Shown piece after piece: positions 1 to 3,000 of a DNA stretch of 64,000 nucleotides. Position 1 is the first letter of the stretch. Each line of letters opens with the position of its first letter. Origin of the DNA: Chloroflexota bacterium (GTDB lineage Bacteria > Chloroflexota > Dehalococcoidia > Lucifugimonadales > UBA3495); assembly GCA_027623675.1 (NCBI GenBank), contig JAQBVF010000004.1:64001-128000 (forward strand), in the 5' to 3' direction. Position numbers: made by a program.

Positions 1-3000
1 GGTCAATATGGTGGTCTTCCTGACGAACATAGATAATTGGGCCAAGTTCAACGAAGTGTTCCGCGAGTTCGTGCCCAACCCGCCCTGCCGAGCCGTGATT
101 GGCGCCACCGGACTGGCCCAAAAGGCCATCGCCATCGAGATAGTCGACTGTTTCGCCTACCGGGTGGCGGACTAAGTATTACCTGGTTTAACCTAAAACC
201 GCTGCGCCTGCTGGGCGGCGGACCAGGCGCTTTCGAGAATCGAAACTGGATTGGAGGCAGACATGGCTAACCTGACATTGGCCTATAAAGTGCGCGGCTA
301 CAGCACCGGCAACCTGGGCCGGGCCATCTGCAACGCCCGGACCCATCATTTTGTCGCTGACGATGGCGGCGGCGATGAAGTCGGCGCCGGCGAGTTCTTC
401 TTCTCGGGCATCTCGGCCTGCGCGGTGAACATGGTGGAGCGCATCGCCGATCGAGACAAGATCGCCTTGGACTGGATGGACGTCAGCGTGGAGTCCTACC
501 GCGACTCGGATGCCGACCACGGCGACCTGTCGCTCTACGACGCCATCCGGATCAAGTTCGAGATGTGGGGCGTGGACGACGAGGACGCCCAAAATCTGGT
601 GGAGACCTGGAAAAAGCGTTGACCGCTTTACGGTTCGGTCGCCGTGGCGACTGCTGACACCACCGTGGAACTGGTCCACCATAGTGAAAAATATCGGTAG
701 CTCATCCGGCCGGCGGTTGGCCGCCGGCAGCCAATAGCTAATTGCCAACCAAACGGCTGATGCCTGTCAGTCAGAGAGGATATATGCGAATCTGCTCTTT
801 CCTGCCCAGCTCCACCGAGATGGTGTACGACCTAGGTCTCCAGGACCAACTGTACGGCGTGACCCATGAGTGCGACTACCCCCCCGAGGCGCGGAACAAA
901 CCGCATGTGGTCCATAGCGTCTTCGAAGGCCAGGAGCCGACCAGCGGCGAGATCAGCAAGGTCATCTCCGAGCGTTTGGCCCAGGGCTTGGGCATCTATG
1001 AGATAGACACCAGATTGCTGCAGGAAGCCGAACCGGACCTGCTAATAACTCAAGCCATCTGCGAGGTTTGAGCAATCTCGTCTCGGCAGGTGGCCGAGGT
1101 TAGCATCGGACTGGCAAAGCAACCGGAGATCTTATCGTTGGACCCGCTTCATATCGGCGACGTCGTTGAAGACCTCAACCGCCTTGGACGCGCCACGGGC
1201 ACCGAGGCCAAGGCGGCGGAAATCACCGCCGGACTCACCGCCCGGATCGAAGCGGTGACCCTGCGGGCCAAGGACGCCGACAAGCATCCCAGCGTGCTCC
1301 ACGTGGAATGGGCGGAGCCGGTGATGTGTGGTGGCCATTGGGTGCCCGAGATGACCGAGTTGGCCGGCGGGACCAACAGTTTCGGCGACAAAGACACCGG
1401 GACGCTGAAGCTGGATTGGGACGAGGTATTGGCCAGCCAGCCTGAGGTCATCATCATGATGCCCTGCGGCTTCGACGTTAAGCGCGGCCTGGAAGATGTG
1501 CCGCTGATGGCCGCGAAAGAGGGTTGGGCGTCGCTGCCGGCAGTGAGGAACAACCGTGTCTACGTGGTTGACGCCGGGGCCTACACCAGCCGCTCCGGCC
1601 CAAGGCTGGTAACCGGCTTGGAGATCATGGCTGAGATGATTCACCCCGAACTGTTCTCGGGCATGATTCCGGAGGGGGCGGCGCTGCGTCTCTTCGGTGA
1701 CCTGGCCAAGACGAGCTAGTTCATCGGCGGTCCCTGGCCGACGGCCGCAAGAATCGTTAATTAAGGCGCGGCCCTTGAAACGGGTTCTGCTTGGTGACGC
1801 GCTCCCGCAGTGCCTCGTTGCCCTGCCGTAGCAGGGGTATCAGGTCCGACAGGCGGGTGGCTGCCGTCTCGGTCACCAACAGGCTCTGACGCAGGTGTGT
1901 CTCCAGTTCCAGGTTGGCGGCGATGGCGTAGGACAATTCGATGGGGTCTTCCGGGATGGCGACCCTTGATGTGTACCCGCCGGTGAGCGCGGTCAGGTTA
2001 CGGACCAGTGCCACGTACTCGTCGTTGACCTGGGGCACGAGATCGGCACATCCCTCGCCTGCCAACTCCACCAGATACCGCACCCGACCAACGATATGCG
2101 GCACACGCTGGACAATCTCCTCGATCTCGAAACGCCTCTGGCCCTTGGTCAGGATGTTCATGCGCCCCTGGTCCAATAGCTCGGAACTGAGTATCCGGGT
2201 AGACGTGCCGATGCGTTCCGGCTCGGCCGGCGAGCCGACCTCCAGACCTTCCTTGATCAACACGACTCCGAAAGGCGCATCATCTCTGAGGCACTCCCCA
2301 ATCATGTTCTGGTAGCGCTCTTCAAAGATGTGGAGCGGCAGGTCCTGGCCCGGAAACAGCACCAGGTTCAATGGGAATAGTGGGAGGTCGGTCAATCCGT
2401 CTCGGGACTCTGGCTCACGTTGTTCCATAACTCTTCGAGTATATTACCTGCGTTCGCGCCAGAACAAGATTCTAGCGTCGGTTCTTGGCTCCACGGACCC
2501 TGAAACCGGTGGGACCTTTCTGATGGCGGGCCCACCGCAGAAAATTGGCGACATCGGCGTCGGCCCGCAGCGCATCGATGGAATTCAACTCTTTGGCCAA
2601 TGTGGACTCGGAGAACATGGCGTGGATTTGCCGGTGACACGTGGGGCAGAGCCTGGCTTGAGGGCCGAACCTGCCGCCCCGCGACCGGGGAACCAGGTGA
2701 TGAGTGGTGAACCGCGGCGATTCCCGGCGGCATAACTCGCATACCTGACGATTATGCGCTGGCCGCGTTTGCTCCGTGACCTCGGTCTGTACCGAATCGG
2801 CGGAGTTTCGCCGCGCCATGTATCAGGATTTGTCCGGCACTTCCAGGAAGCGCCATCCCGGAAGGTCAACCTGCCAGTCCTCGTCCTCCCACAACATGGG
2901 AAGGATCAGGCCGTTCATGGCCCGCCCGTGTTCAACCTCGGTGGTGTCGCTCTCCATCCCGAAGGGAAGAAAGGCGAAGGCGTGGATATCGTCCAGATAG

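Follow-up and report, generated by a model that had tools for sequence, protein, structure and literature searches.

The internal TGA of a gene of the OsmC/Ohr superfamily, which lies near the start of the 64,000-nucleotide stretch of Chloroflexota DNA analysed here (the window), is, from the comparison of sequences, almost certainly read as selenocysteine (Sec), and it falls at the second of the two active-site cysteines. The gene is intact, and its product is probably an Ohr/OsmC-type selenoprotein working through a peroxidase-type cycle between Cys57 and Sec124 (residues are numbered from TTG251). The gene caller had opened the frame at TTG251 and closed it at TGA622 as a 123 aa product, the ORF to TGA620–622 comprising 123 codons from TTG251 or 119 from ATG263. 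The initial annotation proposed that the frame continues for 25 codons beyond this TGA, and the sequence is as claimed: it reads WKKR-U-PLYGSVAVATADTTVELVHHSEKYR (Sec-site peptide R-U-PLYGSVAVATADTTVELVHHSEK) and ends at TAG698–700. The 149-aa length given for the product is likelier to be 145 aa, as the true start is probably ATG263, because a GGAGG (252–256) stands 6 nt ahead of it and the homologues (119 aa) begin MANLT or MSTLT, the first Met of the database homologues being equivalent to ATG263. The features of the region are collected in Table 1.

Table 1. Coordinates of features in and around the OsmC/Ohr selenoprotein gene (positions in the window).
Feature	Position	Strand	Remarks
RidA/L-PSP-family gene, 3' end	2..175	+	Upstream neighbour; Pfam Ribonuc_L-PSP 62.8 bits on L105:7627-8175
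GGAGG ribosome-binding site	252..256	+	6 nt 5' of ATG263; read from sequence
OsmC/Ohr-fold selenoprotein CDS	263..700	+	145 codons + TAG
Arg24 codon (numbering from TTG251)	320..322	+	Family-wide conserved; start of strand 2 (AF2 model)
Glu48 codon	392..394	+	Aligned with catalytic Glu of Ohr (PEQLF)
Cys57 codon TGC	419..421	+	Peroxidatic site of Ohr/OsmC (first catalytic Cys); aligns with GYSAC in Ohr chains
TGA read as Sec (U124; residue 120 from ATG263)	620..622	+	Second catalytic Cys position; Cys in full-length homologues
bSECIS-type hairpin	636..653	+	Conserved 6-bp stem 637-642/647-652, loop CGUG 643-646
BtuF-like (Peripla_BP_2) selenoprotein gene	784..1719	+	TGA1069-1071 (CEVU), own hairpin 1082-1098

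The protein was assigned to its fold by the Pfam OsmC model (PF02566; 41.2 bits vs a cut-off of 27.5) and by an AF2 model of pLDDT 94.1, for which Foldseek gave 63 matches at E<=0.001, all of OsmC/Ohr type among the matches listed, with a probability of 1.00 to OsmC and Ohr chains. Aligned to solved Ohr chains, the TGA codon falls on their second conserved Cys (VCPYS) and Cys57 on the first (GYSAC), in full agreement with the earlier proposal that the TGA replaces the second Cys and that the first (SACAV) is kept. These two residues are the peroxidatic Cp (Cys61) and the Cr (Cys125) of Xylella Ohr in an excerpt of PMC5962072, and the catalytic Cys pair of the superfamily is placed about 60 residues apart in an excerpt of PMC5384416; the spacing from Cys57 to U124 is 67 residues, and both positions align to Cys of Ohr/OsmC chains. 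The label "resolving" for the second site is carried over by this alignment and should be read as putative. Glu48 aligns with the Ohr Glu, and the near-invariant Arg24, which is found in the loop region that also contains the Ohr Arg, may be its counterpart. By homology, the protein may also be dimeric. No NCBIfam model reached its cut-off for this protein, the Ohr subfamily models included (TIGR03561, 22.3 vs 88.85; NF052637, 26.1 vs 240). Peroxidase activity would thus be an extrapolation, since the protein scores far short of the cut-offs for Ohr and OsmC_like_Se and its nearest structures are uncharacterised OsmC-like proteins.

The initial annotation had retrieved no stop-free Cys orthologue from 201 genomes; such orthologues were present among the database relatives. 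Thirty of the best 120 relatives were full length with Cys-Pro at the site (R-C-PLYG), and 89 ended exactly before the Sec codon. All aligned full-length homologues of 60–76% identity (19/19) read WK[KRQA]R-C-PLYG, and distant members of 25–47% identity retained RCPLYG; the site column was at least 90% Cys in 30 more distant representatives and invariant Cys in a 40-row alignment. Among 31 related loci, 13 carried a Cys codon and 17 a TGA. Within the order, a single TGA was found in 96 of 97 match rows, from 94 of 401 genomes (E<=1e-10), the remaining row being a fragment that ended short of the TGA site; the conservation previously described from 37 of 37 matches in 201 genomes was therefore upheld and the count superseded. 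The TGA occupied the identical codon in each of the 50 loci read, and 17 further TGA forms came from MAGs titled Acidobacteriota, Alphaproteobacteria/Rhodospirillales, Dehalococcoidia and Rokubacteriota, which brings the comparison to 67 loci with the TGA, drawn from at least four phyla.

Nearly all 50 loci continue after the TGA with P(L/I)(Y/F)G(S/T)VAVAT (two are divergent variants), and in all 50, down to 35% identity, an extension of 20–31 codons is open and under protein-level constraint. The codon-position entropy 3' of the TGA was 0.59/0.46/1.35 for positions 1/2/3, compared with 0.70/0.65/1.50 on the 5' side (50 loci); the high third-position value (1.35 vs 0.59 and 0.46) argues that translation goes on past the TGA. 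The proposed catalytic residues were retained across the 118 aligned family members: Cys57 was C in 118/118 (67/67 Sec forms, 51/51 Cys forms), Arg24 was R in 117/118 (67/67 and 50/51), and Glu48 was E in 115/118 and D in the other 3 (E in 66/67 and 49/51). Cys27 was considered as a third catalytic residue of the whole family and rejected, being C in 76/118 members (47/67 Sec forms and 29/51 Cys forms).

A hairpin 3' of the UGA had been claimed and is present, with the sequence GGUCGC-CGUG-GCGACU at 637–652; the distance from the UGA to its start is 14 nt rather than 17 nt, and the last base of its 3' arm is U, giving a G.U pair, rather than C. In the window, C636-G653 adds a seventh pair; the codons for G-S-V-A-V-A-T span the whole element. 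The bSECIS model (legend of Fig 2, PMC13188914) allows a loop of 3–9 nt with G within its first two positions, a stem of 4–16 bp, 16–37 nt from UGA to loop, and an MFE of at most -7.5 kcal/mol. The element falls within these ranges, having a 4-nt loop CGUG (G at position 2, followed by U), a stem of 6–7 bp, a UGA-to-loop distance of 20 nt, and a folding energy of -14.4 kcal/mol over the 46 nt from 620 to 665; the bare 16-nt hairpin, at -7.4 kcal/mol, is just short of the limit. RNAalifold found the same helix, and 99.7% of the hairpin alignment cells were paired. The compensated variation that had been claimed was borne out by compensatory changes at two of the six pairs, one being CG 31 / UA 17 / UG 1 and another GC 44 / GU 2 / AU 1 / UA 1; the UA/CG exchange separates mostly one clade from all others and so represents few independent events.

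All six pairs were intact in 66/67 Sec-form loci vs 5/13 Cys-form loci, and the GU of the loop occurred in none of the 13 Cys-form loci. At the protein level, Val132, whose codon forms this GU, was V in 64/67 Sec forms vs 3/51 Cys forms, and A131, A133 and T134 were kept in 67/67 Sec forms vs 39–42/51 Cys forms. The SECIS-type element thus constrains the coding sequence in genes with the TGA and not in the others. The codons for V-A-x-A-T are partly self-complementary on their own, and the stem alone is not diagnostic because a version of 5–6 bp persists in 11/13 Cys-form genes. The hairpin was not unusually stable for its GC-rich sequence (z of -0.36 for 90 nt and -0.82 for 46 nt), and an Rfam scan of the whole window at the gathering threshold found no family, a result that is uninformative for a bacterial SECIS.

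The genome encodes the complete machinery for Sec: selA (554.8 bits), selB (347.7 bits, at G000:C45) and selD (380.3 bits, with a TGA of its own) each scored over the cut-off, as did a tRNA-Sec with anticodon TCA (70.4 bits), which ARAGORN also called as tRNA-SeC. Across the order, selA was over the cut-off in 370 of 401 genomes, including all 94 that carry the OsmC/Ohr Sec gene. TGA also serves as an ordinary stop, ending 16 of the 53 long open frames of the window. This usage, and the 119-aa products in gene calls and public databases, would fit a TGA that simply terminates a truncated 119-aa OsmC protein or a pseudogene with residual similarity downstream. We consider this very improbable: the extension is open and constrained in 50/50 loci, the TGA stands on an otherwise invariant Cys column, the hairpin and its loop codon are conserved in TGA forms only, and, by the AF2 model, the truncated protein would lose the final helix and strand. 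It is scarcely credible that the TGA is instead recoded to another amino acid, by a genome-wide reassignment or by near-cognate read-through to Trp, Cys or Gly. Read-through in a UGA-C context is known in general, with nothing specific to this gene, and against it stand the many long frames of the window that end in TGA, the full Sec machinery, the Cys found as the homologous residue and the SECIS-type element at canonical distance.

With Sec at position 124, the following mechanism may be proposed for the enzyme. UGA620–622 would be decoded by SelB and tRNA-Sec under the direction of the stem-loop at 636–653. The Cys57 thiolate, activated by the Arg and Glu, would reduce a hydroperoxide and become a sulfenic acid, which the Sec124 selenolate would attack, forming a Cys57-S-Se-Sec124 selenenylsulfide within the molecule; this bond would then be reduced by a dithiol, either a lipoylated protein or thioredoxin. 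Selenium at the second position would make resolution and recycling faster and shield Cys57 from over-oxidation. As a separate observation, Sec occupies the attacking position in most selenoenzymes, which counts against a purely "resolving" role of Sec124.

Two other readings accept the selenoprotein and differ as to its chemistry. In one, which we regard as unlikely, the roles are inverted, the Sec124 selenolate attacking the oxidant and Cys57 resolving the selenenic acid. A selenolate needs no activation by Arg and Glu. Sec is the attacker in families of known mechanism (Prx TxxU, GPX UxxT and MsrA; PMC13188914), and in Ohr the corresponding pair lies close enough to bond, as seen from the Cys61-Cys125 disulfide of 4XX2 in the excerpted text of PMC5962072. 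The equal retention of Arg24, Glu48 and Cys57 in Sec and Cys forms speaks against this exchange of roles, as one would expect it if Cys57 has remained the activated nucleophile. Nor would Sec as the partner residue be new, for many catalogued families carry it second in a CxxU pair (Table 1, PMC13188914). The other reading, to which we likewise give a low probability, holds that the protein is no hydroperoxide reductase and that C57/U124 serve another redox or a chalcogen- or metal-handling task; it is modelled on the third branch of the OsmC superfamily, the function of which is uncharacterised. The top structural neighbours are indeed uncharacterised OsmC-like proteins (2egt, 1lql, 2onf, and 1ml8 of YhfA type), the scores fall well short of the cut-offs for the Ohr equivalog and subfamily models, neither an OhrR-type regulator nor a conserved redox partner is found close by, and the gene is placed between those of a RidA-like protein and a BtuF-like selenoprotein. 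This neighbourhood is, on the other side, conserved among close kin only, and in the profile alignment the match to Ohr and OsmC chains takes in both Cys positions. The Cys-Glu-Arg set, which excerpts of PMC5384416 tie to peroxidase activity and describe as absent from the third-group "Ohr-like" proteins, is conserved here. The cycle from Cys57 to Sec124 remains the reading that we prefer.

The surroundings of the gene were compared with those of 80 other loci. A RidA-like ORF was found in the flanks of seven of these, upstream in six and downstream in one (L030), and the order RidA, OsmC(Sec), BtuF-like(Sec) occurred in five, all from the window's own family-level group. The BtuF-like gene, of a family catalogued as "Cobalamin-binding protein BtuF, CxxU" (Table 1, PMC13188914), had been placed 42 nt downstream with an adjacency that rarely recurs; the adjacency is real and was seen in close relatives only (5/80), and the gap is 41 nt if counted to TTG742 or 83 nt to the likelier start ATG784. 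Genomic context was dropped as a clue to function, the flanking-ORF clusters having reflected nothing beyond clade-level synteny and antisense artefacts. The stretch examined near the OsmC/Ohr gene contains no OhrR, lipoyl or thioredoxin gene, and a scan of window positions 1–1900 for promoters and terminators found none; GC-rich stem-loops without a T run are present in both intergenic gaps.

We suggest tentatively, as a possibility somewhat short of even, that the gene belongs to a widespread, uncatalogued subfamily in which selenium was repeatedly placed at the resolving residue, Cys and Sec having been switched at least four times at this one position and never at Cys57. If this is true, it is the resolving and recycling half-reaction, rather than the attack on peroxide, that would benefit from Sec, through fast formation and reduction of the selenenylsulfide and through less over-oxidation. 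The gene is missing from selenoproteome counts because the database records of most close relatives are 25–26 residues short and no NCBIfam model scores over its cut-off. Sec at the second Cys, with Cys counterparts at 60–76% identity, makes the role of Sec as a non-primary nucleophile directly testable, and the U/C and C/U OsmC paralogues of one genome would provide a natural paired experiment on what makes selenocysteine worth its cost to the cell. The conservation of the loop Val in Sec forms only is a clear case of a SECIS that shapes the protein sequence, and could serve as a signature for hidden selenoproteins.

An OsmC-like selenoprotein has been described from marine metagenomes (Zhang, Fomenko and Gladyshev 2005, PMC1088965), and Table 1 of a 2026 review of 119 families and subfamilies (PMC13188914) gives "OsmC-like protein, PF02566, UxxT" as the sole OsmC form, from which we take the present subfamily to be uncatalogued. 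A full-text literature search for OsmC-type selenoproteins returned the UxxT form only, the supplements of the deep-Sep and Haft papers aside; OsmC and BtuF are absent from the main text and 5 supplement files of PMC5029168 (Peng 2016), and OsmC from the main text and one, possibly incomplete, supplement file of PMC13326102 (BSepDB 2026). The genome has its own member of the UxxT family NF041052 (OsmC_like_Se), at G000:C36, which scored 155.1 bits with this model, not the 164 first reported; the 26 bits reported for the present protein were reproduced (26.1 vs a cut-off of 95), which, together with a Cys at the first site and no UxxT, supports the earlier view of a separate subfamily. The NF041052 proteins and the product of 263–700 have in common the OsmC fold, one Sec per chain, and a UGA with a downstream bSECIS. 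Their layouts are opposite, as had been recognised: the family carries Sec at the first site (F-U-EMT) and Cys at the second (U/C; ILF-U-EMT and NGCWV at G000:C36), whereas the present protein carries Cys first and Sec second (C/U; R-U-PLYG). BLASTP between the G000:C36 protein and that of 263–700 gave no alignment.

Ohr (Xylella fastidiosa 1ZB8/4XX2 and P. aeruginosa 1N2F), as far as the excerpted sources describe it, shares with the protein the fold, two catalytic positions (Cp/Cr) 64–67 residues apart, a Glu before helix 1 and an Arg that is conserved within the strand-loop region near the N-terminus; it differs in that identity is about 15–20% and in that our protein has Sec at the second position and the extra Cys27. 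Foldseek ranked highest (E 2.7e-8 to 8e-7, TM 0.72–0.82) the uncharacterised OsmC-like structures 2EGT (Aquifex AQ1549), 1LQL (M. pneumoniae), 2ONF (Thermoplasma Ta0195) and 1ML8 (E. coli YhfA-type), which are 12–16% identical to it and have neither Sec nor a known function. The CxxU selenoproteins (AhpD-like, SelW-like, GrdA and Prx-SUH; Table 1, PMC13188914) resemble it in having Sec as the partner position of a Cys/Sec pair; their pair is 2 residues apart within thioredoxin-like or AhpD folds, whereas here the two residues are 67 apart and are brought close to each other by the OsmC fold.

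The window, located at G000:C10:64001-128000, carries an intact OsmC/Ohr-type gene whose second catalytic position shows Cys/Sec pairing, together with a conserved, covarying SECIS-type hairpin, within a genome that holds the Sec machinery. Reading the window sequence past TGA620-622 showed that the same frame is open for 25 further codons, as the initial annotation had proposed, and ends at TAG698-700; the read-through product ends ...LVETWKKR-U-PLYGSVAVATADTTVELVHHSEKYR. The length of 149 aa given with that proposal is probably too great: the true start is probably ATG263, giving a 145-residue product, since GGAGG (252-256) lies 6 nt before this codon and the corresponding Met is where database homologues start (those cut at the TGA are 119 aa, counted from that Met). 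Residue numbering was nevertheless kept from TTG251 (i.e., Cys57 and U124).

Features of the OsmC/Ohr-type gene and its surroundings (window positions unless stated otherwise)
Feature	Position	Strand	Remarks
Queuosine-precursor cluster	L105 (stretch of contig C10 reaching upstream of the window) 5129-7646 = G000:C10:61129-63646	-	QueF-like, PTPS/QueD-like, QueC, radical-SAM QueE-like
RidA/L-PSP-family gene	ends at 175	+	directly upstream of OsmC-type gene
OsmC/Ohr-type ORF as called	TTG251 to TGA620-622	+	123 codons
SECIS-type hairpin GGUCGC-CGUG-GCGACU	637-652	+	starts 14 nt after UGA
Peripla_BP_2/BtuF-like selenoprotein gene	784-1719	+	in-frame TGA 1069-1071, C-E-V-U
SECIS-type hairpin of BtuF-like gene, CUCGGC-AGGUG-GCCGAG	1082-1098	+	10 nt after UGA

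The gene was found in 94/401 genomes of the order (E<=1e-10), and exactly one TGA was present in 96 of the 97 match rows (in two of these a TAA also occurs close to the end); the one row left is a fragment that does not reach the site. Fifty loci, 30 from the order-wide search and 20 more divergent, were read residue by residue; the homologous codon was TGA in 50/50, and P(L/I)(Y/F)G(S/T)VAVAT followed it in nearly all of them, down to 35% overall identity. Entropy by codon position was 0.59/0.46/1.35 after the TGA vs 0.70/0.65/1.50 before it, the periodicity of translated sequence; on these sequence statistics, selection acts at the protein level on the frame downstream. TGA ends 16/53 long open frames in the window, and its use here is thus without genome-wide reassignment. 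Two Sec forms from MAGs titled Dehalococcoidia (L091 and L093) have Ala in place of the near-invariant Pro after Sec (WKRR-U-ALYG). Another genome, G125, carries an intact copy of the gene and also a second copy in two adjacent pieces (G125:C9:916106-916533; residues 4-83 with no stop, and 83-141 with the TGA), possibly a frameshifted pseudogene.

The initial annotation had listed as its weakness that no stop-free Cys orthologue was retrieved; such forms exist. A protein database search gave 513 relatives, and among the best 120 of these 30 were full length with Cys-Pro at the site, 89 ended exactly before it, and 1 ended one residue pattern off. The motif WK[KRQA]R-C-PLYG was present in 19/19 full-length forms aligned (60-76% identity), and R-C-PLYG was kept in remoter representatives at 25-47% identity; C57 and C124 were invariant in a 40-row alignment, and Cys57 was unvarying in 118/118 family members. 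A genome scan with a Cys form as seed yielded 31 loci: 13 with TGT or TGC (MAGs titled Acidobacteriota-type, 10; Nitrospinota, Gemmatimonadaceae and Deltaproteobacteria, 1 each), 17 with TGA (Acidobacteriota, 4; Alphaproteobacteria/Rhodospirillales, 9; Dehalococcoidia, 2; Rokubacteriota, 2), and one frameshifted.

A hairpin does follow the UGA as had been noted, with a measured spacing of 14 nt instead of 17 nt. It agrees with every constraint of the bSECIS model used for comparison (legend of Fig 2, PMC13188914), with a loop of 4 nt, a stem of 6-7 bp, 20 nt from UGA to loop and a folding energy of -14.4 kcal/mol (620-665); the loop has G at position 2 followed by U, and C636-G653 forms an extra pair lengthening the hairpin in the window. 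The folding energy of the bare hairpin was -7.4 kcal/mol. RNAalifold on the 50-locus alignment predicted exactly the 637-642/647-652 helix, with 99.7% of cells paired vs 24-77% when the 3' arm was slid. The SECIS of E. coli fdhF, in which SelB is contacted by the G and U of a GGUC loop, has an upper stem very similar to the window hairpin.

The stability and the covariation have their weaknesses. For DNA this rich in GC, the stability was unexceptional (z -0.36 for 90 nt, -0.82 for 46 nt). Both-sided changes were seen in 2/6 pairs (CG 31 / UA 17 / UG 1; GC 44 / GU 2 / AU 1 / UA 1) at synonymous third positions of Val and Ala codons, the UA class of the covarying pair coming mostly from one clade; moreover, V-A-x-A-T codons are partly self-complementary anyway, and 5-6 of the 6 pairs were kept in 11/13 Cys-form genes. 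Despite this, the contrast between Sec and Cys forms settles the matter, at the level of sequence comparison, in favor of a predicted recoding element. All six pairs were intact in 66/67 TGA loci vs 5/13 Cys loci, and the loop was NGUN in 64/67 vs 0/13 (the exceptions among TGA loci being GGCC in two Rokubacteriota loci and GUUC in one). Val132, whose codon supplies the loop GU, was Val in 64/67 Sec forms vs 3/51 Cys forms (Ala 17, Thr 16, others), and A131, A133 and T134 were each present in 67/67 Sec forms vs 39-42/51 Cys forms; thus, the coding sequence is held in check by the RNA element solely in forms with a UGA to decode. The two loci from MAGs titled Rokubacteriota (L103 and L104) encode Ala at the loop codon, and their GGCC loop still carries G at its two leading positions. 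The 13 Cys-form loci (L074-L083, L086, L100 and L102) have a partly decayed hairpin with GU never in the loop. Sec-to-Cys conversion may have left this hairpin behind as a fossil SECIS, or it may be a mere by-product of the V-A-x-A-T codons.

The site was followed on a quick, unrooted maximum-likelihood tree of 118 rows (67 Sec and 51 Cys forms; the frameshifted locus L101 and every database protein that ends at the codon were left out). Sec and Cys states were intermixed; parsimony gave 11 changes at the site, at least 4 of them forced by well-supported branches, compared with a mean of 38.6 for shuffled labels. Acidobacteriota Cys forms with decayed hairpins neighbour Acidobacteriota Sec forms, which suggests Sec-to-Cys conversions. 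Sequences from two MAGs titled Dehalococcoidia fall within those of the order, and the genome of the window therefore probably belongs to Chloroflexota/Dehalococcoidia.

The genome under study, G000, encodes selB (347.7 bits), tRNA-Sec (70.4 bits; called tRNA-SeC with anticodon TCA by ARAGORN), selA (554.8 bits) and selD (380.3 bits; G000:C3:53424-54344, L018); the last has one in-frame TGA, and this selenophosphate synthetase is probably a selenoprotein too. selA was over the cut-off in 370/401 genomes of the order, including, on comparison of the two genome lists, all 94 gene carriers; with almost every genome of the order using Sec, this association is weak. The initial observation of a selenoprotein was borne out with small corrections and its interpretation was supported, the Cys orthologues closing the gap that it had named; we hold with high confidence that the product is a genuine selenoprotein.

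The window protein scored 41.2 bits with Pfam OsmC (cut-off 27.5), and an AlphaFold2 model from a 40-sequence alignment had a mean pLDDT of 94.1 and pTM of 0.84. Foldseek against the PDB gave 63 matches at E<=0.001, those listed all being of OsmC/Ohr type; the uncharacterised OsmC-like structures 2egt, 1lql, 2onf and 1ml8 ranked first, followed by OsmC of T. maritima and E. coli and numerous structures of Ohr. When aligned by phmmer and by profile with solved chains of Ohr, SAC(57)AVN pairs with GYSACF, KR-U(124)-PLYG with VCPYS, and Glu48 (GAGEFF) with the Glu of NPEQLF. In Xylella Ohr, Cys61 is named as the peroxidatic and Cys125 as the resolving, disulfide-forming Cys, with Arg19 and Glu51 completing the triad (PMC5962072), and the family hallmark is a pair of catalytic Cys separated by about 60 residues, along with Glu and Arg (PMC5384416). 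From these alignments and the residue roles so named, the TGA was correctly assigned to the resolving (second) position.

By analogy with the Ohr/OsmC mechanism, the thiolate of Cys57, held in place by Arg24 and Glu48, would reduce a hydroperoxide, Sec124 would attack the resulting sulfenic acid to form a selenenylsulfide, and a dithiol reductant would regenerate the enzyme; selenium at the resolving step would make both resolution and reduction faster and shield Cys57 from over-oxidation. This scheme is reasoned, as opposed to demonstrated. A peroxidase-type function seems reasonably likely; its main rival is some other redox role, which would suit the uncharacterised state of the nearest structures and the scores of the Ohr models, far below their cut-offs. 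As to the order of attack, we lean slightly toward Sec acting second, the main rival being a role inversion where Sec attacks first.

The RidA - OsmC-type - BtuF-like order recurred in 5/80 other loci, each from the family-level group to which the window belongs, consistent with the earlier remark that the BtuF-like adjacency is rare among relatives; the queuosine-precursor cluster is divergent from the RidA gene. We saw no basis for a functional link of the OsmC-type gene to its neighbours. The BtuF-like family already has a catalogue entry, 'Cobalamin-binding protein BtuF, CxxU' (Table 1, PMC13188914); the N-terminus here, MRICSFLPSS..., is unlike a signal peptide, and this protein may reside in the cytoplasm. 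A scan of window 1-1900 gave neither a consensus promoter nor a terminator. GC-rich stem-loops without a T run follow the RidA stop (182-227; z -2.47 for 176-262) and, directly, the OsmC-type stop (709-728; GCCGGCGG-UUGG-CCGCCGGC).

Among 119 prokaryotic selenoprotein families/subfamilies catalogued in a 2026 review, the sole OsmC entry is 'OsmC-like protein, PF02566, UxxT' (Table 1, PMC13188914), which goes back to the Sargasso Sea survey (PMC1088965). Literature searches on OsmC-type selenoproteins yielded no account of a second-site Sec form, and supplements outside these searches may still contain one. Since the review treats forms with a different Sec position as distinct subfamilies (PMC13188914), the second-site form would be one as well: a widespread subfamily of OsmC/Ohr selenoproteins that is uncatalogued and that annotation systematically truncates. 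A third OsmC paralogue of the genome (G000:C47:25825-26136, L106) has Cys at the first site, Ser at the second and no stop codon, so that three paralogues show three layouts (U/C, C/S and C/U). The catalogued type is present in the same genome (G000:C36:5182-5604, L072) and scored 155.1 bits with NF041052, whereas the window protein scored 26.1 against the cut-off of 95; BLASTP gave no alignment between the two. The C36 protein has Sec at the first site (...SILF-U-EMT...) and Cys at the second (...NG-C-WV...), whereas the window protein has Cys first and Sec second, the opposite layout, as originally described.
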